Virus record (IMG/VR): IMGVR_UViG_3300045988_161139
Source: a virus
Length of the DNA: 38,151 nt
Strand: one strand, 5' to 3'
Shown piece after piece: positions 27,081 to 37,030 of the stretch (the stretch's first letter is position 1; each line of letters starts with the position of its first letter). The notes beneath the pieces were generated by a model. It saw only the letters and a list, made by a program, of their open reading frames with translations. It was not told the origin of the DNA and did not search any database. Made by a program: the position numbers and the translations under genes.

Positions 27081-27440
27081 CTACCTTTCGAGTTTCACCT
27101 CCTCGTCCATTCCGACGATACCCCGCCGGCGCAGGCGCTTGATAAAGTTCTTCATGTTCAATGCCTGCTCATAGTAACAGTCCTTTTCGACCTTGACACG
27201 CGATTTACGGTCGCTCTCGACCTTCATGTTCTCAGGATTCAGCCACGAATCGGCTGACACCTCCACTTCCGCTCTCGACGCTGTCCGCGTAACCGTATTG
27301 AATTTATAGAGGGTATGACCTGGCACCCGAACCAGTTGCCCGATCAGTTTGTATTCGTTCTGCTTTCGTTCGACGGCCTCAATCTGCGCTTTGGCGATCT
27401 TATCGTTCGTCACGCCGTCATGTGGAGTCAAGATGTCCAT
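27081..27440 (-). CDS. Hypothetical protein (start taken at internal Met to avoid a 140-nt overlap)
   Basis: Track ORF 27081..27584. Met49 at 27440 lies 4 nt after the upstream stop. Confidence 0.4.
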   Translation of the reverse strand: MDILTPHDGVTNDKIAKAQIEAVERKQNEYKLIGQLVRVPGHTLYKFNTVTRTASRAEVEVSADSWLNPENMKVESDRKSRVKVEKDCYYEQALNMKNFIKRLRRRGIVGMDEEVKLER

Positions 27441-27444
27441 CGTT

Positions 27445-27795
27445 CTATTCGTTTTCGTAAATCGGTCGCCAGCCGATAACCACACCATCGTATCCGAGAC
27501 ACTCTTCTGCATTCTGGCAGAAGGAATAGCCTCCATCACACATCCACACATCATCTTGGCGGGCTCCAAGATAAATTCGCTCATGTTCGCCGTCCGAGAC
27601 TTTCATCAAAACACACGAATTATTTTCCGGCAGTTCCTCATTCGGATTACGCCAGCGGGTCAATTCTTCCCGCTCGGATTGGGCACCTGCAATAAAGTCA
27701 CATTCAGTTAACTTCATGTGACTGCCGTATTCTCTCGTCCCACCACGCCACACTTTTCGAGCATACTTTTTTGCCCTTTCCTTAATCGCTTTCAT
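27445..27795 (-). CDS. DUF551-like phage protein
   Basis: The C-terminal ...GYDGVVIGWRPIYENE resembles the DUF551 C-terminal W.P.P signature. Low-confidence family call. Confidence 0.4.
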   Translation of the reverse strand: MKAIKERAKKYARKVWRGGTREYGSHMKLTECDFIAGAQSEREELTRWRNPNEELPENNSCVLMKVSDGEHERIYLGARQDDVWMCDGGYSFCQNAEECLGYDGVVIGWRPIYENE

Positions 27796-28052
27796 ATCTC
27801 ATCCAATTTTTGGATAAATGATCTCAAATCTTCACACAGCGCAGGGTCGCACACCCTACCGCTCCCGTCACAACCGTCCTTATATTTGCATGAGGATTTG
27901 AATGCCTCTATTGCCTTTTCACGCATCCGCTCCTCGGTTTCTTGCTCGGCAAGTCCTGCCATCCTTTCGGCATCCTGCATTGTCACATACCCGCTATACG
28001 GATAGCTGCACTCGTGATCGTACAAGTAATTTTCAGCTCTTTCACTTTTCAT
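27792..28052 (-). CDS. Hypothetical Cys-rich small protein
   Basis: 86-aa ORF with 4-nt overlaps on both sides. Confidence 0.4.
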   Translation of the reverse strand: MKSERAENYLYDHECSYPYSGYVTMQDAERMAGLAEQETEERMREKAIEAFKSSCKYKDGCDGSGRVCDPALCEDLRSFIQKLDEI

Positions 28053-28456
28053 TATTCTACTCCTTTCAGTAATTCTGGGTTATCGTGCATATTGCCGATT
28101 GCCCACATTTGATAGGAATCGTCGAAGCAATCGGAAATAAGAAAAATATCCACGTCGCCGAAGTTCACAACGAACCCACAGTTTCGCCACTCGACCACTC
28201 CGATGCTCCCGAACTTATCGGTCAGTACATCCCCTTCGCAAATTTCTTCACCGTTCTTGTCTTTCAGACCCGTGTACTGGCCGATTGTATCGGGGTAAAC
28301 TTCGTCAATGATTGCCTTTATTCCATTCTCTTCCGAATATTTTGTCATCGAAACAATGCCAGTTTTCCCATTAAAACACTCCACAAGACTACCGACAGCC
28401 CATTCCATTGTATCAGGGCGTTTGCCTCGGAATTTAATTTCTCTCATAGTCTCCAA
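28052..28456 (-). CDS. YopX-family phage protein
   Basis: MREIKFRGKR...YTGLKDKNGEEICEGDVL...IGNMHDNPELL matches YopX N-terminal, central and C-terminal motifs. Confidence 0.75.
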   Translation of the reverse strand: METMREIKFRGKRPDTMEWAVGSLVECFNGKTGIVSMTKYSEENGIKAIIDEVYPDTIGQYTGLKDKNGEEICEGDVLTDKFGSIGVVEWRNCGFVVNFGDVDIFLISDCFDDSYQMWAIGNMHDNPELLKGVE

Positions 28457-28495
28457 TTTTTTTTGTAATTATTTCGAGATTTTGCCAGAATCTCG

Positions 28496-28966
28496 CTATT
28501 TCTTGAAATGTTTGATAATCTCCTCGGCGGTGGCCTTATGCCGAGCAAGTCCCTCCCATTTAGATATGATCGGATCGTCTTCAACATGATCCATACCGAT
28601 ACATAGTGACCATCTATCCGTAATTTCGTTTACATACCACTGCATGTAATCGTTCTCGTCGTTCATCGCCGCCAATGCCTTAAACAGCTCGATATTCTCG
28701 CCGCAGTCTATGGCTGGGTGTCCTTTGGCAACATTTTCAGCCTTGAACTGGTCGATGGAATATCGGGTTTCCTCGTCGTAGTCGCAGATCCCGTGCACCT
28801 CGTAAGCGATTTTAAGCCGATCAATCCCTCTGCAATGCAGGGTGTTACAGCCGTCAAATAGGCAGCAGGAGCAGACGTGATACCCGATTCCCTTCAGCCA
28901 TTCGGTCAGCTCCTTTCGCTTTTCCGCATCCTCGACACGGACAAAGCACGGTGTTGTAAACTCCAT
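28496..28966 (-). CDS. Hypothetical protein
   Basis: 156-aa ORF, Cys/His-containing. Confidence 0.4.
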   Translation of the reverse strand: MEFTTPCFVRVEDAEKRKELTEWLKGIGYHVCSCCLFDGCNTLHCRGIDRLKIAYEVHGICDYDEETRYSIDQFKAENVAKGHPAIDCGENIELFKALAAMNDENDYMQWYVNEITDRWSLCIGMDHVEDDPIISKWEGLARHKATAEEIIKHFKK

Positions 28967-28967
28967 A

Positions 28968-29549
28968 CTATTTCACCAATTCGAATTCGTAAACCACCAC
29001 CCACGGGTTCCGATCCCACGTTCCGCGGCCGGATACCTTGTCAATCAGCGAAGCGAAGGCTTCGCGGTGATCGTCAAAATAGAAGCCCTCTTCTCGGCGC
29101 ATATCTTCAAAGTAAAATTTGCCAATTTGGGGCAAATACCGAATTCCCTCCCTAAGGCAATCAGCCTCCGAAATATCATACAACCGCTCGCACTTGATTC
29201 CGGTGATGCGGATTTGATGCGGCATCAACTCGGCCTTAGTAAGCATCTTGTTCGTCCAACCAGATGGTTTATCATCATCTTCCCAAGCATACGGATTGAC
29301 ACAGTTGGAGTAGTCGAAAATATCTTGATATCTCTGCGCCACGGCCACGACCTCGCCGACCTTGTAGGACAGCTTTTTCTCAGCACATACATCGCCACTA
29401 CGCCCGATGATTTGGACGTATCCTGCAAAAATTCGTACCTGTACGTCGGAGGTGGACTTGATATTAATCAGCATCATCGCCATGGTCTTTCGACCCTCGA
29501 TGACCGCCTGCGTCAAGCCGTAGCGGTCGTTGAACATAATCTTTTTCAT
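28968..29549 (-). CDS. ASCH-domain-like protein
   Basis: The N-terminal ...LTQAVIEGRKTMAMMLI and the C-terminal ...NPWVVVYEFELVK resemble ASCH-domain signatures. Moderate confidence. Confidence 0.45.
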   Translation of the reverse strand: MKKIMFNDRYGLTQAVIEGRKTMAMMLINIKSTSDVQVRIFAGYVQIIGRSGDVCAEKKLSYKVGEVVAVAQRYQDIFDYSNCVNPYAWEDDDKPSGWTNKMLTKAELMPHQIRITGIKCERLYDISEADCLREGIRYLPQIGKFYFEDMRREEGFYFDDHREAFASLIDKVSGRGTWDRNPWVVVYEFELVK

Positions 29550-29599
29550 CCTTTATAGTTTTTGAATTCCACACTCTTGAAAATCGCCCGATGATTGCA

Positions 29600-30330
29600 T
29601 CAGCGGGCCAACCGTTTTTGCTCATTTGTCGGCTCGACGTTATTATCGAAATCCCTGTATGGCTGGGCGAACGGGAGTACTCCCAATTTGCGCAAAGCAT
29701 TGATTCGCTCCAATGCGTCATCGACATCTTGAATCAGGCAGTAGACAAAAATCCGATAAGGCTTAACACCTCGACGTCCCAATTCCTTCACACACTTGGC
29801 TACCGGTTCCAGCTGTGACATCCGGTCACAGGCGAATCGTACCTGATTCATCCATTTCACGCGGGACAACAAGTCGAGGATGAAGGCGTCGTCGCAAGCC
29901 TGACGTGCATCCAGACCTTGATTGAAATCTACGGAGATACCCATACGGACGATCTCCTCGATCTGTTCCAACCCGAAGTCCGACGCCAGCACATTGTTGT
30001 CGAGCAGCACGGCGCGCCGTTTGTCGCCGATGAATTCACGAAGCGGCGATGCCGGACGGATCGAGCCCTCCTTATGCGGAACGATGCACCACGGGCAGCG
30101 GTTCACGCATCCCCGCGTCAGAAAGCCATAGGCTTCGTCCACTCCGTACAGCGAATAATCCGGACAGCAATGTTCGATCTCGTCGGGCAGCGTCGTCGTG
30201 TAGTCTTTATAGCCTGTGCCGGCACGTACGACCTCGCAAGGGTAATAATCCGGACAGTCGGGCGGAAAGCCCATCATCTGGGCCACATATCGGGGATTCA
30301 GTCGGGAACCCTTCCCAGTTCGAGACGGAT
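29600..30330 (-). CDS. CX3CX2C (radical-SAM-type) cysteine-motif domain, read through without a stop from the 3' end of the broken C5-methyltransferase
   Basis: ...YGFLTRGCVNRCPWCIVPHKEG... shows C-x3-C-x2-C as in radical SAM / QueE / NrdG-like proteins. No canonical start codon lies between the methyltransferase motif X (GFPPD) and the cysteine motif. No clear GGE motif is visible. Confidence 0.45.
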
Positions 30331-31083
30331 GCGAAATCATGACGTCGTGGACGACTCCGCTCTTCCGCGTGGCTTGACTGGGTGGAAGACTGGAATTTAT
30401 AGCATCGTTGACCGTCGGCGTTGACAACAGCCCCATCCGCGTTGCAAGCGCGAGCGTCGGCCGAGCAGTCGCACCATCCGACAGGCTCCTGTTCACACGC
30501 CCGCTCCCGCAATCCGACGCGACCGGTGTCGGCAGTAGAGCCGGCGGCAATGGCTCCGAACCGCTCTTGCCATGAACTTTCAGCCCTTGCGTCACCACGG
30601 TGGGCAACAAACCATGTTCTGTATCGCAGGTGGGGAGCACCGACGCCAGCAGCTGGTATAAGGTACGCTTGCACCTCGTATCCTGCCGCCTCCAAATCAG
30701 CGCACACCTGCTCGAAAACCATTCCCTGCGACCAATTAACGATTCCGAGAACGTTCTCGCCCACGACCCAGCGCGGTCGAACAGTCCGAACAACTCCGAG
30801 CATTGCGGGCCAGAGGTAGCGGTCGTCGGCCGTACCCTTGCGTTTGCCCGCGAGGCTGAACGGCTGGCACGGGAAACCGCCGGTGAGCACGTCGATGCAG
30901 TCGCGCCAAACGGTAAAGTCTGTTGTTCGTATGTCTTCATATTTGTTCCGATTCGGGAAAATGATACTTCAATACGCGCCGGCAGAACGGGTCGATCTCG
31001 CAGTTGAAGACGTTCGTCCAGCCGGCCCACGCGGCCGCTAAGTCGAAGCCGCCGATGCCGCTGAATAGAGAACCGTGCGTCAT
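30207..31083 (-). pseudogene. DNA (cytosine-5)-methyltransferase split over three reading frames (two frameshifts)
   Basis: Frame A from the ATG at 31083: MTHGSLFSGIGGFDLAAAWAGW...KYHFPESEQI* (motif I). Frame B from 30937: YEDIRTTDF...LTGGFPCQPFS (motif IV)...VVGENVLGI (motif VI)...PHLRYRTWFVAHR (motif VIII). Frame C from about 30560: LLPTPVASD...RLNPRYVAQMMGFPPD (motifs IX/X). The first frameshift is a 1-nt difference in CAAATAT (plus ttt 30942..30944); deleting one A restores ...ESEQYEDIRTT. Confidence 0.7.
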
Positions 31084-32021
31084 TAGTACTCCACCGCTGC
31101 CCTGCGATCGATGAAGAAATGAATACCCGGTGCGCATTCGCTCCACCTGTTATCGTCGAAATCCGGAACTTCCACAGTAGCACCGACAGTGTAGACGAAG
31201 TCTTTGTCATGGTCGGAACGAACGGTATCCTCAGTTGCCTTGGTGCCGTCCATGTTCTGAATCTCCATGACGTATGCTTTATCGCAACGGCATTTGTGTC
31301 CCGTTGCCGAACTGCGCCGTGCATCTTCCGGAATTCGTAATTTTACGATATGCCCAGAGGCTTTTTTCCAACCGATGAAACTACCCTCAGTCGGACATGA
31401 TAGATAACATCCCTTGGCATCGCGTAGGTTGGCACCGCGCAGGTCGGCGCCGTACAGGTTGGCACCGCGCAGGTCGGCACCGCGCAGGTCGGCGCCGTAC
31501 AGGTTGGCACCGCACAGGTCGGCACAGCGCAGGTCGGCATCGCGCAGGTTGGCACCGCGCAGGTCGGCATCGCTCAGGTTGGCATCGCGCAGGTTGGCAT
31601 CGCGCAGGTTGGCATCGTACAGGTCGGCACCGCGCAGGTTGGCATCGCGCAGGTTGGCACCGCACAGGTCGGCGCCGTACAGGTTGGCACCGCACAGGTC
31701 GGCACAGCGCAGGTCGGCATCGCGCAGGTTGGCACCGCTCAGGTTGGCACTGCGCAGGTTGGCATCGCACAGGTTGGCACCGCACAGGTTGGCACCGCGC
31801 AGGTCGGCACCGCGCAGGTTGGCACCGCGCAGGTTGGCACCGCACAGGTCGGCATCGCACAGGTTGGCATCGCGCAGGTCGGCATCGCGCAGGTTGGCAC
31901 CGCGCCTAATAGCGTCCAAAACCGTTTCGGTGATTGTGTTTCCCTCTTTCGTGTATTCAAATACGACCGAGCCAGTCCAACGGTTGCGGATTTCGATTTT
32001 AATCTGTTTCGTTGATTCCAT
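31083..32021 (-). CDS. Pentapeptide-repeat protein (about 40 A(D/N)LxG-type repeats) with a distinct C-terminal domain
   Basis: ...GANLRDADLRDANLCDADLCGANLRGANLRGADL... throughout residues 40-200. The C-terminal 110 aa is non-repetitive (CYLSCPTEGSFIGW...ECAPGIHFF...). Its stop overlaps the Dcm ATG as TAATG. Confidence 0.8.
   Translation of the reverse strand: MESTKQIKIEIRNRWTGSVVFEYTKEGNTITETVLDAIRRGANLRDADLRDANLCDADLCGANLRGANLRGADLRGANLCGANLCDANLRSANLSGANLRDADLRCADLCGANLYGADLCGANLRDANLRGADLYDANLRDANLRDANLSDADLRGANLRDADLRCADLCGANLYGADLRGADLRGANLYGADLRGANLRDAKGCYLSCPTEGSFIGWKKASGHIVKLRIPEDARRSSATGHKCRCDKAYVMEIQNMDGTKATEDTVRSDHDKDFVYTVGATVEVPDFDDNRWSECAPGIHFFIDRRAAVEY
31397..31910. repeat. 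Near-perfect 15-bp tandem array (gcaggt(c/t)ggca(c/t)cgc) underlying the pentapeptide repeats
   Basis: Read directly. Dozens of units differ only at 2-3 positions. This generates spurious long ORFs in all frames on both strands. Confidence 0.9.
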
Positions 32022-32394
32022 TGTGGTAAATTTGTTTATCCGGATTCATGTATTGATTTGCGGCAGCAATAGCATCTTCGAGCGTGCGAACTACAACATA
32101 CTTGTTCCCCGCAGTCTCAAAGGACTCTTGCCATCTTCTCTGTACGGCACTCTGACGACTGCCCTTTCCCTGTGTCTTGAACTCCAAACCGAGCGATCCG
32201 TACTTGCCCCTCGGAACGAGCAGAAGCAAATCCGCAGCACCGGCCGTCATACCTTCGGCCTTCATGATTGCGGCTTCGGTCTTACTCCGGAGTCCGCCGT
32301 TCGGGACACTCGTCAGACATAGTGCATAGGACGGATATTGCATCCGGAACCAGCGGACGAACGACTGTTGTATACGAGATTCAACGTGCCTCAT
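31999..32394 (-). CDS. VRR-NUC domain nuclease
   Basis: ...VRWFRMQYPSYALCLTSVPNGGLRSKTEAAIMKAEGMTAGAADLLLLVPRGKYGSLGLEFKTQGKGSRQSAVQRRWQESFETAGNKYVVVRTLEDAIAA matches the VRR-NUC pattern (hvPNgg.r...G..aGvpDl.l...g....iE.K...G..s..Q..w). Confidence 0.75.
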   Translation of the reverse strand: MRHVESRIQQSFVRWFRMQYPSYALCLTSVPNGGLRSKTEAAIMKAEGMTAGAADLLLLVPRGKYGSLGLEFKTQGKGSRQSAVQRRWQESFETAGNKYVVVRTLEDAIAAANQYMNPDKQIYHNGINETD

Positions 32395-32978
32395 TTGCGC
32401 AGACTGTTTCCATTGAACGCAACACGATAGCACAGGTATTTAATACGGTCATATATCCGGTCACCATAGCGTTCCTTGATGCCTTCACCCGACAGATTTG
32501 AGGAAGCTATAACCATCCGATCGGGGTTATCCTGCACCTTGTTCACGATCTCGACTACCACATTCCGGCGTGTACCGAATTCGACGCGATCCACCTCTAC
32601 ACCTATATCGTCCAATGCGATGAACTTGCGTTTTAATACCTCGTCGATACATACGTCCTGCGCTCCGCAGTCCACGACCGTAACGATTCGATTAGCGAAC
32701 TTGCGCAACAGCATGGGAATGGCGTAGCGGGTTATCAGGGATTTTCCGCGTCCGCAATTACCGAACAGCAAAAGTCCCTTACCGTTGTTATCCGACAACC
32801 ACGCTGCAACCTTGTCGTATTCGGGAAGCCATACCAATCGTTCTCCCATTGCCGACAGCACAGTAACCAGCGCGTTTTTCAATTCCGTCCGCGCATCGGG
32901 TATCCGAAACCGGAAGCGTGCGCATGGAACCGGATTACCCTCAGTTTGTAGTTGTTTGAGTATTTCTTCGTAAGACAT
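32391..32978 (-). CDS. DnaC/IstB-like AAA+ ATPase (helicase loader)
   Basis: Walker A LLLFGNCGRGKSLIT; Walker B-like KFIALDDIG. Size and position follow a replication initiator. Confidence 0.7.
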   Translation of the reverse strand: MSYEEILKQLQTEGNPVPCARFRFRIPDARTELKNALVTVLSAMGERLVWLPEYDKVAAWLSDNNGKGLLLFGNCGRGKSLITRYAIPMLLRKFANRIVTVVDCGAQDVCIDEVLKRKFIALDDIGVEVDRVEFGTRRNVVVEIVNKVQDNPDRMVIASSNLSGEGIKERYGDRIYDRIKYLCYRVAFNGNSLRK

Positions 32979-32980
32979 AT

Positions 32981-33844
32981 TCAGAATTCATCATAATGTT
33001 GAGTCGGTTTTGCATGGTAGGTCGTAGCCGGATGCCGAGTGTTCGAACGGGGCAACGACGTTTCATTACGCCGACGCGCCCAATTCAGAAATGTCAGATA
33101 GGCCGAACGATTGCGTTTCAGCAAGGGTTCGTAGTTATGCATCGCGCGCAATAGGTCGCGGATGAAGTCAAGAGCATAAGCCTCTTTTAAAGCCGAGAAT
33201 TGCGCCTCGGAAAAAGGCTCTTTCATTTTCGCGACTCGCGGTGCATTTTCCGAAATCCATTGTTGAAACTCCAAGAACTCGCGGGAGGGGGTGCCGCGGA
33301 ACTGGGGGAGGGTGTTGGAGGAGTCAGTTACCTCTGCCTTCTCCGAGAAGGGCGGTAGTACGACTATCTCCCCATTAGGGGGATTATAGGGGGTAATATT
33401 ATTCTTGTCTAGTCTATCTTCTATACAAGAAGTATCGCCTTCGTTTTGGCTTCGTTTTTGGCTTCGTTTTTGGCTCCGTTTTTGGCTCATGTTTTGGCTC
33501 ATGTTTTGGCTCATATTTAAGCCAATTGAACCATTTGAAACGATGCCTGATTCGGGATTCGGTTCTTCAACGAATGAAAAAGCTGTGCGGTTCCCCTTCC
33601 CGCGTCCTCCCGTTATGATATGTAACAGACCCGCTTGCTCCAATCGGTTTTTTGCTCTCGAAATTGCATTGCGTGACGCCCCTACATTCTCGGACAGCCT
33701 TCTGTCGGAATGCGTGAAGCTATTCGGCCAGCCTAACCGATTCGCTTGTTCTACAAGGTAGAAGTAAAGCCTCGATTCACAGCAGCCAAATTGCCACGTT
33801 GCATCCAATTGCCAAAATTTGCGTATCAGGTCTATATAGCTCAT
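32981..33844 (-). CDS. Replication initiation / primosomal protein with an N-terminal winged-helix domain (start at the internal Met MSYIDLIRKF...)
   Basis: ...LYFYLVEQANRLGWPNSFTHSDRRLSENVGASRNAISRAKNRLEQAGLLHIITGGRGKGNRTAF is a typical phage replication-protein wHTH. It contains a low-complexity NMSQNMSQNMSQKRSQKRSQKRSQ linker. Confidence 0.6.
   Translation of the reverse strand: MSYIDLIRKFWQLDATWQFGCCESRLYFYLVEQANRLGWPNSFTHSDRRLSENVGASRNAISRAKNRLEQAGLLHIITGGRGKGNRTAFSFVEEPNPESGIVSNGSIGLNMSQNMSQNMSQKRSQKRSQKRSQNEGDTSCIEDRLDKNNITPYNPPNGEIVVLPPFSEKAEVTDSSNTLPQFRGTPSREFLEFQQWISENAPRVAKMKEPFSEAQFSALKEAYALDFIRDLLRAMHNYEPLLKRNRSAYLTFLNWARRRNETSLPRSNTRHPATTYHAKPTQHYDEF
33438..33515. repeat. 12-bp in-frame tandem repeats (ttttggct(c/t)(a/c)(t/g)g) within the replication protein gene
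   Basis: ttttggcttcgtttttggcttcgtttttggctccgtttttggctcatgttttggctcatgttttggctcat read directly. Confidence 0.85.
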
Positions 33845-34209
33845 AATCGCATCCTCTCTTTCTCTAAACTTATCATCGTGCGAAGGTTGTCGCATTGGTG
33901 CTTGCACGCCGCATTGATCCGATCCAGCCACTTTTCAAGGGCATTCAGCTCGGAAGACGCACTGCCGATCAGTTTGTTCGCAAGCGACGGGGAAAGGCTG
34001 AGAATAGTCTCTTTCTCGTCGTGAAACAGCTTGGCCACAGCTGCATCGCGCATTCCGACCACCTCGCTCAGCAACGCCCCGCTGCGAGCATAATATACAC
34101 CCAGTTGATCCAGCCGCCCCACCATCGAATCGATGTCGGAAAAAGTCGTGCATTCAAGAAGATTCTGGATGTCTCGCGCCTCCCTGCGTATCTGTTCGAT
34201 CCTTGTCAT
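33841..34209 (-). CDS. Hypothetical protein
   Basis: 122-aa ORF, helical with coiled-coil character. Confidence 0.4.
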   Translation of the reverse strand: MTRIEQIRREARDIQNLLECTTFSDIDSMVGRLDQLGVYYARSGALLSEVVGMRDAAVAKLFHDEKETILSLSPSLANKLIGSASSELNALEKWLDRINAACKHQCDNLRTMISLEKERMRL

Positions 34210-34360
34210 GACGTTTGTTTATTTTCTTCAATAACAACCTTCCGCGGCGTAACGCATCCCATTCCTTTGCGGTCAGCAACGTATGCCCGCGGATGCGGGA
34301 CAGGACGCGGAGGATGCGGAGCGCTTCCCGCGCCTCCGCATCGGTAATCCGCATATCCAT
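34154..34360 (-). CDS. Hypothetical small basic protein
   Basis: 68-aa ORF. It overlaps the downstream gene by 56 nt, so one of the two starts is uncertain. Confidence 0.3.
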   Translation of the reverse strand: MDMRITDAEAREALRILRVLSRIRGHTLLTAKEWDALRRGRLLLKKINKRHDKDRTDTQGGARHPESS

Positions 34361-34362
34361 CG

Positions 34363-34659
34363 TCAGAAGGGAAGATCATCCGTATTATCCGCTACGGGCA
34401 AATCGGAGACTTGATCCGGCGTAGGTTCCGCAGGACGGAAGATAACTGACTTGCCTCGGCCGACATACGTGCGCGCGTCTTTTCGTTCGCGTTCCTCTTT
34501 GCTCTGACGGATGAATACGCAGTGCGTATTCTCGTACTGATCCGGCTGGCGAAGCTCCGAAACGCATATCGAAATGTACTTCTTGCCGTTTTCGGCGACG
34601 AAAATTTTGTCTCTGGGAATATCGCTCACGCAGAGCGATACATTGATTAAATCTGCCAT
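34363..34659 (-). CDS. Hypothetical protein (possible DNA-binding)
   Basis: 98-aa ORF with 3-nt spacing to its neighbours: MADLINVSLCVSDIPRDKIFVAENGKKYISICVSE... Confidence 0.4.
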   Translation of the reverse strand: MADLINVSLCVSDIPRDKIFVAENGKKYISICVSELRQPDQYENTHCVFIRQSKEERERKDARTYVGRGKSVIFRPAEPTPDQVSDLPVADNTDDLPF

Positions 34660-34661
34660 TG

Positions 34662-35120
34662 CTACCGTTTTTTGAAGGTTACTTTAAGTGTCGTCTTGCT
34701 GCTTCGCGCAGGAGGATAGAAAATTTCGCCCGTGGCGGGATCCGTCAGGCCGGAGGCCGGCAACGCCCGCAATATCTTCTCCTTCTCCTTGATGTCGGCC
34801 ATGACCGCATCACGCATTTTGTACAGGTCGTCCAAAGCCTGGCAATTACAGCCCGAGTAGTCGTACTTGACGCCGGCCTCCACCTCTTCGATCGTACAGT
34901 CCGAGGATGTTTTCCCGTGTCCGTATTTAGCCAGTTCGCGCAACGTAATGTCGCGCACCTCTTCGGACTTCTTGAACAGCTCGATCGCCTTCTCCATGCG
35001 GGATATATTCTCGTAAGCGACGAGCGGATCGACGTCTCCGCGGGTAACGGCGTCGACGGCGAGCTTCGCCAGCTCCGTGGGGCTGCTCGTCTCGCGTATC
35101 AATACAGGTTGTGTGTTCAT
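34662..35120 (-). CDS. Hypothetical protein
   Basis: 152-aa ORF between Rad52 and the replication genes. Confidence 0.4.
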   Translation of the reverse strand: MNTQPVLIRETSSPTELAKLAVDAVTRGDVDPLVAYENISRMEKAIELFKKSEEVRDITLRELAKYGHGKTSSDCTIEEVEAGVKYDYSGCNCQALDDLYKMRDAVMADIKEKEKILRALPASGLTDPATGEIFYPPARSSKTTLKVTFKKR

Positions 35121-35791
35121 ATTTTCTGCTGTTTACTGTTTAGATATTCGTCGTAAAATTTGGCGAAGACTACCGCCGTCGTATCGTCCGCATCGTAAGT
35201 GCGACGAAGGAAGGCGATGACATCGAATTTCGTCGGGTCTTTGACCGTCGTACTGCCCTTGTACGCCCAGCGCATGAACTGATCGCGCAAGACCGGATCG
35301 TTCAGCATATCGGCCGTGATCCGTTTCTTCGGAGCTGCCTGCACGGCTGCGGCAGCCGGGATCGGGTCGGGAGCAGCCGGCAGGCGTTGCACGGAGCTCT
35401 GAGGTGGCGCCCCCGCGCCGGTCTGTCTGCCCTTGAATACCTCGGCTCCGATACCCAACCAGGAACAAACCTTCGTCAGCGCATCCGTGGTCGCTCCCTT
35501 GCAGGCGTCGCCCAGATCGGCGTTATCGTTGCCGCCAAAACACTCGTAATAGATGCCGTATTCAGGGATCGAAAAACGTAGCTTGACGACGACCATGCGC
35601 TCGGAACGTTCGACGATCTCCGTCTCCACACGCCATGAGCCTACGCCGAAAACCTCGTTGAGCCGTTCCGTTACATAAATCGACTTGATAGACGACAGGA
35701 ACTTCTTCGTCGGATGCTGCGAGACGGCTTCATCGGGAAGACGTCGATCCAATGCCGCCTTCTGTTCGGGGGTGATAGTTCGTGTTTCCAT
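35117..35791 (-). CDS. Rad52/Rad22-type single-strand annealing protein (recombinase)
   Basis: ...IKSIYVTERLNEVFGVGSWRVETEIVE...VVVKLRFSIPEYGIYYECFGGNDNADLGDACKGATTDALTKVCSWLGIG matches the Rad52 fold motifs (FG..GWS ... G.G ... K.A.TDA.K). Confidence 0.75.
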   Translation of the reverse strand: METRTITPEQKAALDRRLPDEAVSQHPTKKFLSSIKSIYVTERLNEVFGVGSWRVETEIVERSERMVVVKLRFSIPEYGIYYECFGGNDNADLGDACKGATTDALTKVCSWLGIGAEVFKGRQTGAGAPPQSSVQRLPAAPDPIPAAAAVQAAPKKRITADMLNDPVLRDQFMRWAYKGSTTVKDPTKFDVIAFLRRTYDADDTTAVVFAKFYDEYLNSKQQKI

Positions 35792-35796
35792 AGCCT

Positions 35797-35961
35797 ATTT
35801 ATCCTCTACTATTCTATGCGTGAACTTCTTCGCATCGAGATGGCGCATCATGTACGCGATCTCTTTGCGTATCTCGTGCGTCCGCAACTTGCGGCTCCAA
35901 CTCCCCGACGCTACAATATTCGTAGGACGGGCGATCTCGTAGATTTCGATTCTCGTTTTCA
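35797..35961 (-). CDS. Small protein (54 aa), hypothetical
   Basis: Minus-strand translation: MKTRIEIYEIARPTNIVASGSWSRKLRTHEIRKEIAYMMRHLDAKKFTHRIVEDK*. It ends 3 nt before the Rad52 start. Confidence 0.4.
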
Positions 35962-35976
35962 TGTGTGACAGATTGG

Positions 35977-36417
35977 TTAGTTGAGTTGCTTTTCAAGGAT
36001 TATTGCATAGTCCGGATATTCTCGGCCATATTGGTCATATACCACGCGAACGCATACCCTGTCGCCCGTGTATTCGGCGTAGCGCTCCACACTGCCGTCG
36101 TCGTGGCTGCCGCCGATGCGCGATTCGTATTCCGCGTAGAAATCGACCGAAGCCGTCAGACCTCTATATTCAACCTCGCAGGTTCCGGATTCCAGCCCGA
36201 GATCATGGGTGATCGCTTCGTTAATCTGTCTGGCGAACTCTTGCAGTTCGGAAGGAACGAGATGTATTTTCGGTTCCTCGATACCGCAGACCACCACAAT
36301 CGGCTCGTCTTTCGACTTCGTGTGCAGGTCATACCCGTAACGGGCCGGTACACTCAAACTCGGATAAACCGCGTATTCTTCTTTTGGCGTTTTCATGCTT
36401 TTCTCAGAATTTTGCAT
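35977..36417 (-). CDS. Hypothetical protein
   Basis: 146-aa ORF. An internal start MKTPKEEY... is possible. Confidence 0.4.
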   Translation of the reverse strand: MQNSEKSMKTPKEEYAVYPSLSVPARYGYDLHTKSKDEPIVVVCGIEEPKIHLVPSELQEFARQINEAITHDLGLESGTCEVEYRGLTASVDFYAEYESRIGGSHDDGSVERYAEYTGDRVCVRVVYDQYGREYPDYAIILEKQLN

Positions 36418-37030
36418 GTTGACGATTGTAGATTCTCCGCATGGAGTTCATCAGATCGGGGAACGTCCGGATATACCCCATATCGACCGAGAAGGCCAGT
36501 TTGCGTTGCAGGTCGTCCAACGCCCGAAGCTGATTCGGCGATGCCGTGTTCCGGATGTCGCGTTCATGCTTGTTGAAGACGATCCAGTTCAAACCCCGCG
36601 CAACCTGAGAATAATCCACATCCGGAAGCGCGGCGATCGACCGTGCAAGTACGTTGTAGTTGTCGCCCGCATGATGCCGGTACTCGATCAGCTGGTCGTA
36701 AACGAATTTCACGACTTTAACCTCGAAGCGGGGATTGAGCCACATCGCAAACTTCACGAACAGGTACGGGTGCATCCATGTACCGCCGTTGTATTTGCCG
36801 CGTGTTTTTAAATATGCCAAATTTGGCACCTTTAAATTTTCCTCCTCCATCAGCGCCTCGATGAAATCTTTGGTGTTCTGATTTTCAAAGAAGTCCTGTA
36901 TTCGTTTGTTGCTGTTCTTGGCTTTGTTCCATTGCGCAAGCAACGACGTCGCGTTGAACATGCCGTCTCTCGTGCGTTGGTATACCTCGAATTTACCCAG
37001 CGGGCGGGTCATGATGACATTGCTTTTCAT
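36404..37030 (-). CDS. KilA-N domain protein (antirepressor-type)
   Basis: ...FNATSLLAQWNKAKNSNKRIQDFFENQNTKDFIEALM...LKTRGKYNGGTWMHPYLFVKFAMWLNPRFEVKV matches KilA-N (GGTW.HP.la..fA.Wlsp.F). Confidence 0.75.
   Translation of the reverse strand: MKSNVIMTRPLGKFEVYQRTRDGMFNATSLLAQWNKAKNSNKRIQDFFENQNTKDFIEALMEEENLKVPNLAYLKTRGKYNGGTWMHPYLFVKFAMWLNPRFEVKVVKFVYDQLIEYRHHAGDNYNVLARSIAALPDVDYSQVARGLNWIVFNKHERDIRNTASPNQLRALDDLQRKLAFSVDMGYIRTFPDLMNSMRRIYNRQHAKF

Follow-up and report, generated by a model that had tools for sequence, protein, structure and literature searches.

The locus considered here raises the question of whether a virus encodes a cytosine-5 (C5) DNA methyltransferase fused to a radical-SAM enzyme. 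It lies on the minus strand, at positions 29,600–31,083 of a 38,151-nt stretch of viral DNA (IMG/VR record IMGVR_UViG_3300045988_161139; hereafter, the window), where methylase motifs are spread over three reading frames, the last of which continues into a CX3CX2C cysteine motif. An earlier sequence-only reading had proposed either a decaying methylase gene fused by chance to a downstream radical-SAM-like gene or a functional methylase followed by, or fused to, a radical-SAM-like enzyme and obscured by sequencing errors. Comparison with intact relatives leads us to conclude, with good confidence, that the locus is a dead three-gene methylase/radical-SAM module, in which a second gene (beta) is nested within the catalytic methylase gene (alpha), and that the products of alpha and beta most likely constitute one methylase.

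Three lesions separate the locus from its intact relatives

In the window, the ATG at 31083 opens the sequence MTHGSLFSGIGGFD...HFPESEQI, which includes motif I. This frame closes at the TGA at 30937–30939, which overlaps the beta ATG (ATGA) and cuts alpha after codon 47; in intact relatives, the alpha reading frame continues beyond this point. The second frame reads GGFPCQ / VVGENV / PHLRYRTWFVAHR (Pfam DNA_methylase, E value of 1.6e-27, profile positions 53–168), and C5 methylase motifs I, IV, VI, and VIII (FSGIGGFD, GGFPCQ, VVGENV, and PHLRYRTWF) are all present. The third frame runs from LLPTPVASD...RLNPRYVAQMMGFPPD to GFLTRGCVNRCPWC without an intervening stop and ends at the TGA at 29600–29602; in a Pfam search of this frame, DNA_methylase matched nothing. 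The frames had thus been correctly described from the sequence.

We aligned the window with eight gut metagenome contigs (L001–L008) that are ~98% identical to it at the DNA level and that each encode an intact relative of the radical-SAM protein. In these contigs, a pentapeptide/DUF5758 gene is followed by a DNA_methylase gene of 316 amino acids (aa), a radical-SAM-like gene of 293 aa with its own start, which overlaps the end of alpha by 13 nt, and further phage genes. Only three differences affect the reading frames of the window: one additional A at 30944, a gap of 283 bp that follows 30255, and G>A at 29600. No indel was found near 30550–30600, where a second frameshift had been suspected; rather than being broken across three frames, the methylase carries a single frameshift lesion, and what lies in the third frame is a nested gene that is conserved.

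That the first shift is due to one extra A, as had been proposed, is borne out by the intact relatives, which read GAACAATATGAAG (E-Q-Y-E) where the window reads GAACAAATATGAAG. Intact alleles at this site are GAAC-AATATG or GAAC-ATCATG; the window and another close relative, L011, share GAACAAATATG, and L006 and L007 carry a different +1 allele, GAACAAAAATG. Overall, four alleles (ATCATG, AATATG, AAAAATG, and AAATATG) occupy the 4–5 nt before the beta ATG in the window (30941–30945) and in L001–L011 and L023, in DNA that is otherwise ~98–100% identical. Of these, two shift the methylase frame by +1, independently of each other; in both, the stop of the shortened methylase overlaps the nested start (ATGA). 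This diversity may reflect a mutational hotspot, selection on the beta start region, or an off-switch. Counting the window, alpha is broken in 5 of 12 close relatives.

The 283-bp deletion is flanked by imperfect 10-nt direct repeats, CGCC(G/C)GACTG. It takes out the last 41 methylase codons including motif X (GNAIVPQVA; the deleted segment holds GGCAACGCCATAGTCCCGCAGGTG), the last 20 codons of beta (WTELPFRHGAASRSKPTATP), and the first ~57 codons of the radical-SAM gene, i.e., its N-terminal Rossmann-like domain. As 283 is of the form 3n+1, the deletion happens to bring the third frame into register with that of the radical-SAM gene, and it is because of this junction that no stop or start separates beta from the radical-SAM part. 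The resulting chimeric ORF (open reading frame; 30940–29603) comprises 446 codons. Beyond the junction, the remainder of alpha is out of frame until a stop at 30207.

The G>A substitution turns the Trp codon of LARW into TGA, 17 codons ahead of the natural end of the radical-SAM gene at 29546–29548; Trp276 is invariant among 43 radical-SAM homologues. The radical-SAM-like region had been traced as far as 29600, and a stop does stand there, but the sequence-only reading missed both that it is a nonsense mutation and that the start of the gene is deleted. The possibility that this TGA is read as Trp (code 4) was rejected, as the codon is TGG in the relatives, and the radical-SAM gene, like its neighbors, naturally ends in TGA. 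The window consequently holds no complete translatable radical-SAM gene and, with alpha split by the extra A and deprived of motif X, no single uninterrupted methylase ORF of the kind present in the relatives.

The locus is accordingly read as the wreck of a three-gene accessory module (alpha, beta, and radical-SAM) of a temperate gut phage, whose host, to judge from the names of matching proteins, is probably Alistipes. The extra A breaks alpha after codon 47, a repeat-mediated 283-bp deletion has fused beta by chance in frame to the radical-SAM remnant, and the nonsense mutation at 29600 removes the conserved C-terminus of the radical-SAM protein. As far as can be told from the sequence, nothing in the module of the window should be functional. 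The apparent methylase/radical-SAM fusion is a deletion artefact of evolution in an ordinary inactivated accessory module, and the suggestion of a decaying methylase gene fused by chance to its neighbor was essentially right. Disruption of the module is common in this lineage. In L011 (3766–3846) and L023 (3742–3843), only the last ~30 radical-SAM codons are left downstream of the methylase, an independent loss of this gene.

The lesions are not sequencing errors

A protein identical to the 446-aa chimera is already present in the protein collection. It comes from a 10.6-kb human-gut scaffold (L102; ENA sample SAMEA2042520) that aligns with positions 27266–36940 of the window (9,675 bp) at 99.99% identity, with 1 mismatch and 0 gaps, and includes the extra A, the deletion, and the TGA. 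An independent gut contig thus bears all three lesions, which therefore are not sequencing errors. The opposite view, whereby the indels arose during sequencing or assembly and the native locus encodes an unbroken methylase with a radical-SAM enzyme after it or fused to it, could draw on the location of the extra A in a short A run and on the close relatives being mostly intact. However, in addition to the evidence from the independent contig, the +A allele recurs in L011 and a different +1 allele in L006 and L007, homopolymer errors do not typically take the form of a 283-bp loss between 10-nt repeats or of a G>A change, and the genes flanking the module are intact. The sequencing-error explanation is largely refuted, and we regard it as exceedingly improbable. 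The idea that the window is a generally error-prone assembly was likewise rejected, given the intact flanking genes and the 99.99% match.

A gene nested in the +1 frame of the methylase

In L001, the intact alpha of 316 aa is read in the second frame throughout, ends in ...WEGFPTESPICGPDDGLSAGLDGITFPAWRRESIKAYGNAIVPQVALRIFETINEYE, and contains motifs I–VIII and X. The alpha of an intact relative matches Pfam with an E value of 2.1e-40 and scores 121 bits with TIGR00675 (cut-off, 100.65). Nevertheless, even the intact protein matches the Pfam profile only over positions 2–168 of 324. A target recognition domain (TRD) and motif IX were not found between motifs VIII and X of the alpha chain, and the motif-IX-like text belongs to the +1 frame. 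The middle of alpha, from motif VIII to motif X, is of low complexity. Its protein sequence is hypervariable and contains indels, and among its codon positions the first varies most; judging from this pattern, the middle appears to be an unconstrained spacer devoid of protein-level constraint.

The +1 frame of the intact relative contains a 248-codon ORF inside alpha, MKTYEQQTLPFG...LLPTPVASD...RLNPRYVAQMMGFPPDWTELPFRHGAASRSKPTATP, closed by a stop. Its ATG is made from alpha codons 47–48 (TAT GAA), and it covers alpha codons ~47–296, or ~80% of the length of alpha. The predicted product, beta, carries LLPTPxAxD repeats, RLNPRYVAQMMGFPPDWT, and a motif-IX-like LNPxxVxxMMGFPxxWT; among PHROGs, it falls into phrog_1008, "DNA methyltransferase." To assess how widely this arrangement is conserved, we surveyed 80 viral contigs with alpha homologues (43–94% alpha identity; GC content of 0.40–0.60), 78 of which have an intact alpha, the exceptions being the frameshifted L011 and L023. 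In all 78 intact loci, the +1 frame is open for 205–339 codons and includes the MGFP motif, and the +2 frame is open for 1–87 codons. The first beta ATG lies at alpha codons 43–59 in most loci, commonly arising from Y-E-D (TAT GAA GAx), and the beta stop is located 17–50 codons ahead of the alpha stop.

Such openness is not expected by chance. When alpha was reshuffled with synonymous codons, the observed open length was reached 0–17 times per 1000, depending on the locus. Across motifs IV–VIII (~101 codons), the +1 frame has 0 stops in 76 of 76 loci, against 3.5 predicted from shuffles; the median probability that this region lacks stops by chance is 0.008. Codon-position variability points in the same direction: under motifs IV–VIII, the third position of alpha is the most variable (0.288 vs 0.074 and 0.108); under the alpha middle, where beta consists of modular LLPTPxAxD repeats and a conserved tail, the third position of beta is the most variable (0.450 vs 0.315 and 0.294); and in the terminal overlap, all three positions show low variability. 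Selection therefore acts on alpha in the terminal parts of the gene, and in the middle its target is beta. The lack of stops indicates that selection keeps the beta frame open, and the openness of this frame far upstream of its constrained part argues for independent initiation.

A phmmer search with the 117-aa third-frame peptide retrieved 498 proteins at E ≤ 1e-3. Overall, 344 beta-like proteins were found among 5.8 billion, compared with at least 8,000 alpha homologues among the matches listed. We considered whether the beta-like database proteins might form a family unrelated to methylase genes and rejected this idea: GGFPCQPFS, when read in the +1 frame, can yield their SPADSPASRS-type motif, so that, by codon reasoning and in line with the variability pattern, their N-terminal similarity would be a by-product of alpha conservation. 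Several database methylases of ~295 aa (P0391, P0393, P0396, P0444, and P0478) are read in the alpha frame at first and then cross into the beta frame, the switch point differing among them; one of them, P0444, is named DNA cytosine methyltransferase of Alistipes communis (NCBI, UniRef). These chimeras are probably frameshift mutants that gene callers let pass, both frames being open.

The nested ORF also occurs in phages with named representatives. The annotated methylase of the cultured Bacteroides phage BS-TP4 (441 aa; GC content of 48%) has a low-complexity middle and contains an open +1 ORF of ~390 codons ending in LNPLFVAEMMGFPPDWTVLPF. In Paenibacillus phage Shelly, SHELLY_56 is annotated as "g55 internal gene" in the +1 frame of a cytosine methylase, and its product matches beta (blastp E value of 8e-17). 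A GGGAGG lies 12 nt upstream of the Shelly beta ATG; given this long distance, it is only suggestive. Thus, the nested gene is already partly annotated in some phage records, yet it is far more widespread than the accessible portion of the literature suggests.

Alpha and beta as probable parts of one methylase

We propose a division of labor between the two frames. Alpha would be a compact catalytic core, the variable region, responsible for DNA recognition, would come from beta together with motif IX, and the two would most likely assemble into one active methylase, by analogy with the two-subunit enzyme M.EcoHK31I. The low-complexity middle of alpha would then be a by-product of carrying beta. 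Two database proteins show the same parts in other arrangements. P0333 (482 aa) consists of an alpha core followed by a beta-like C-terminus, in tandem and in frame rather than nested, and in its aligned segments motif VIII is separated by only ~11 residues from the conserved block that precedes motif X. In P0315, a beta-like region is followed by motif X in one chain. The motif-IX-like label of beta draws on the pattern itself, on its position before motif X in P0315, and on the name of phrog_1008.

Several observations weigh against our interpretation of the locus. The reality of the lesions is deduced from an independent contig and not from read pile-ups. The N-terminal ~112 residues of beta follow the constraint on alpha and may have no function of their own. 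Beta had no match in Pfam and NCBIfam searches, a beta profile found no solved C5 methylase among PDB sequences, and the AlphaFold2 (AF2) model of beta alone is unconfident (mean predicted local distance difference test [pLDDT] score of 38). Furthermore, M.EcoHK31I has a small beta and its TRD is attributed to alpha, whereas here the recognition region seems to reside in beta, because beta has the only constrained sequence between motifs VIII and X.

The radical-SAM protein and its linkage to methylases

A search with the CX3CX2C part of the chimera returned thousands of stand-alone proteins of ~292 aa, several of them 98–99% identical, which have 56 extra N-terminal residues (MQKIGLVDVDGHHFPNLALMKLSAWHK...) and end in ...KRLARWCNHRAIFKSVEFKNYKG. 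The three cysteines of the motif (C107, C111, and C114) are invariant among 43 homologues and are preserved in the window as GCVNRCPWC. The protein matches phrog_9298, "radical SAM domain protein" (E value of 3e-90); its scores with Pfam PF04055 (Radical_SAM), 17.4–19.6 bits, are below the gathering cut-off of 29.5. The AF2 model of an intact relative, P0003, has a mean pLDDT of 83.8 and displays the partial TIM-barrel fold of radical SAM enzymes. Foldseek matches are weak, and radical SAM methylases and methylthiotransferases are among the top structural matches. The intact protein is a genuine but minimal radical SAM enzyme. Recognition of a radical-SAM-type cysteine triad in the sequence therefore stands, and the proposed resemblance to QueE and NrdG activase does not: a QueE/NrdG-type activase was rejected as the closest relative, the weak NCBIfam matches being to the MiaB/RimO family.

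Methylase and CX3CX2C genes are adjacent in L001–L008, an arrangement that the sequence-only reading had proposed to look for in homologous loci. An intact radical-SAM gene is present in 0 of the 78 other intact alpha/beta loci, and the broken relatives L011 and L023 retain the 3' remnant only. When viewed from the radical-SAM side, 3 of 8 sampled contexts have a DNA methylase gene as the immediate upstream neighbor, a C5 methylase in L001 and N6_N4 methylases in L090 and L098; the remaining five are phage replication or conjugative-element accessory regions with no adjacent methylase. Linkage of the radical-SAM gene to C5 methylases is weak. In L090 (3019–4885) and L098 (1975–3879), the homologues are 60–80% identical and their setting is conjugative-element-like or chromosomal; in L098, a C5 methylase follows 1.9 kb further downstream. 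Another homologue, in L094 (7428–8882), is located in a phage region with two Pfam TAGT (PF20691) genes and a ParB_N gene, a neighborhood that might be related to DNA modification.

Features of the locus and its surroundings

Table 1. Coordinates of the module remnants and lesions in the window.
Feature	Position	Strand	Description
Alpha N-terminal fragment (C5 methylase catalytic subunit)	30937..31083	(-)	48 codons, motif I FSGIGGFD; Pfam PF00145, E value of 1.5e-5
+1 frameshift site, AAA run with one extra A	30942..30944	(-)	Breaks alpha; 2–4 nt upstream of the beta start codon
Alpha remainder, second frame	30207..30941	(-)	Motifs IV GGFPCQ(PFS), VI GENV, and VIII PHLRYRTWF, then low-complexity middle
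Beta, nested +1-frame ORF, codons 1–228 of 248	30257..30940	(-)	MKTYEQQTLPFG...LLPTPVASD...RLNPRYVAQMMGFPPD; phrog_1008, E value of 5e-21
Deletion junction, surviving copy of imperfect direct repeat CGCC(G/C)GACTG	30255..30264	(-)	Alignment with relatives
Radical-SAM remnant, ~codons 58–275 of 293	29603..30256	(-)	CX3CX2C = GCVNRCPWC; in-frame fusion to beta
Premature stop in the radical-SAM gene at the Trp276 codon (TGG to TGA)	29600..29602	(-)	G in 8 of 8 relatives
Stranded 3' end of the radical-SAM gene	29546..29599	(-)	CNHRAIFKSVEFKNYKG and natural TGA; ORF reading and relatives

The positions of the remnants and lesions are given in Table 1. On the downstream side, the natural radical-SAM stop (29546–29548) overlaps the ATG of the next gene (28968–29549; ATGA), for which the recorded product is an Alistipes communis hypothetical protein. 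Immediately upstream of the methylase gene, a pentapeptide-repeat and DUF5758 gene (31083–32021, minus strand) encodes 312 aa in the window and 56, 61, 182, 237, or 277 aa in the relatives; therefore, either the repeat number varies or some of the gene calls are broken. Its repeats create long open alternative frames on both strands, e.g., at 31387–31909. Elsewhere in the window, a tRNA-Gln(ttg) gene is located at 727–798 on the minus strand, and the plus-strand ORFs between 2000 and 6000 have GC contents of 0.35–0.47, compared with 0.50–0.62 in the phage-like rest; this low-GC stretch may be a cargo region or the edge of an element.

Alternative explanations

Rather than two polypeptides, alpha and beta could yield a single one by programmed frameshifting, with motifs I–VIII read from alpha, a +1 shift into beta, and a −1 shift back for motif X. 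The canonical order of motif VIII, TRD, motif IX, and motif X is restored only by such a path from alpha through beta to alpha, and chimeric alpha-to-beta ORFs do exist in databases, P0444 switching right after motif VIII. Yet those chimeras switch at many points, as random frameshift mutants would. Moreover, the stop-free stretch of ~101 codons in 76 of 76 loci lies upstream of the required shift, an ATG is available near alpha codons 43–59 in most loci, and no conserved slippery site was seen, with no good candidate at ATA-TGA or AAA-TGA. In P0333, motifs VIII and X of alpha are contiguous and beta is appended after X, and the M.EcoHK31I precedent consists of two polypeptides. We thus consider frameshifting very unlikely and favor separate synthesis of alpha and beta. 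A similarly low probability attaches to the notion that the +1 alleles before the beta ATG serve to switch function on and off or to set a ratio, instead of simply abolishing function, for instance through termination–reinitiation at the ATGA overlap that boosts beta, or through a three-piece enzyme. In its favor are the four alleles within 4–5 nt of otherwise ~98% identical sequences, the two independent +1 variants in 4 of 12 close relatives (window counted), the overlap of the alpha stop with the beta start, and the ability of inactive C5 methylase fragments to complement each other (PMC3404938). On the other hand, the A run of 3–5 nt is too short for classical phase variation, the part of alpha from motif IV to motif X has no evident start in the +1 alleles, and the module of the window bears two further inactivating lesions. 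Frameshifts and chimeras at many other sites of the gene fit frequent loss of a dispensable gene.

The third alternative concerns the module as a whole, namely, that the methylase and the radical-SAM enzyme together form a DNA cytosine hypermodification pathway going beyond 5-methylcytosine, as the sequence-only reading had entertained. The 13-nt overlap of the two genes in this lineage, the DNA methylase directly upstream in 3 of 8 radical-SAM contexts, and the structural matches to radical SAM methylases and methylthiotransferases are all compatible with this scenario. However, the absence of the radical-SAM gene from all 78 other intact alpha/beta loci means that gene linkage lends it no support; no methylase is adjacent in 5 of 8 contexts, and where one is, it may belong to either of two unrelated families. 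We deem hypermodification improbable, albeit less so than the preceding two explanations, and retain the reading of the locus as an inactivated accessory module.

Implications

For the window itself, the outcome is a clean negative: the module is dead, and represents neither a new fused enzyme nor a sequencing artefact. With regard to the intact relatives, we lean slightly toward the view that a large family of phage C5 methylases consists of obligate two-subunit enzymes, the recognition subunit of which, ~200–330 codons long, is overprinted in the +1 frame; the family may extend across phages of Bacteroidota and Firmicutes and low-GC environmental viruses. If so, few conserved same-strand gene overlaps in prokaryotic viruses would be longer than this one, and standard annotation would be missing beta almost everywhere, as the numbers of beta-like proteins and alpha matches given above suggest. 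Low-complexity methylase middles would be by-products of the overlap, and the frequent frameshift alleles at the beta start would be natural off-switches. Many phage entries named "DNA cytosine methyltransferase" that have an odd low-complexity middle and no TRD would most likely have their recognition subunit in the second frame, in which case specificity prediction, REBASE-style typing, and interpretation of gut-phage methylomes miss half of the enzyme. More generally, the alpha/beta family would offer a natural, sequence-rich system for the study of long dual-coding regions, in which constraint switches frames along one gene.

Comparison with known systems

The radical-SAM protein can be compared with two-domain enzymes that combine Rossmann and radical SAM domains, including the cobalamin-binding MgmA, TsrM, CysS, TokK, and OxsB, as well as AprD4 and the methylthiotransferases RimO and MiaB. 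It differs from these in size (293 aa vs 417–730 aa), with only 10–14% identity, and, unlike them, the copy in the window is devoid of the N-terminal domain and of the C-terminus.

The closest counterpart of the nested arrangement among annotated phages is the SHELLY_55/SHELLY_56 pair (KP296795) of the Paenibacillus larvae phage Shelly, where both alpha (blastp E value of 4e-48) and the nested +1 beta are homologous to those described here and where the arrangement is already annotated in GenBank and RefSeq. The host belongs to a different phylum, Firmicutes. In P. larvae phages, annotation of the internal gene goes no further than "hypothetical protein" or a second methyltransferase and gives it no role; the accessible text of a comparative paper (PMC6070908) does not discuss it, and the accessible portion of the literature searched contained no description of it.

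Among characterized enzymes, M.AquI requires two subunits, is split in the variable region, and has motif IX on the smaller subunit (PMC3404938). In these respects the proposed alpha/beta pair would resemble it, the difference being that the small subunit of M.AquI also has motif X. The M.AquI genes reportedly overlap at their ends only and, unlike alpha and beta, are not nested over some 250 codons.

M.EcoHK31I provides the nearest precedent. Its beta subunit is encoded wholly within the alpha gene in another frame, alpha contains motifs I–VIII and X, beta contains motif IX, and both are needed for activity (Lee, Kam & Shaw 1995; PMC2836561, PMC3404938). M.EcoHK31I is part of a restriction-modification system, whereas the methylases of the window family are orphan phage enzymes. 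Its alpha subunit, of ~310 aa, is similar in size to that of the window family. A tblastn search of plasmids with beta, aimed at finding M.EcoHK31I, returned only Bacteroides matches. The likeness is one of organization: alpha of the window family likewise has motifs I–VIII plus motif X, and a beta nested in another frame is found in 78 of 78 intact loci, as well as in L001, BS-TP4, and Shelly.

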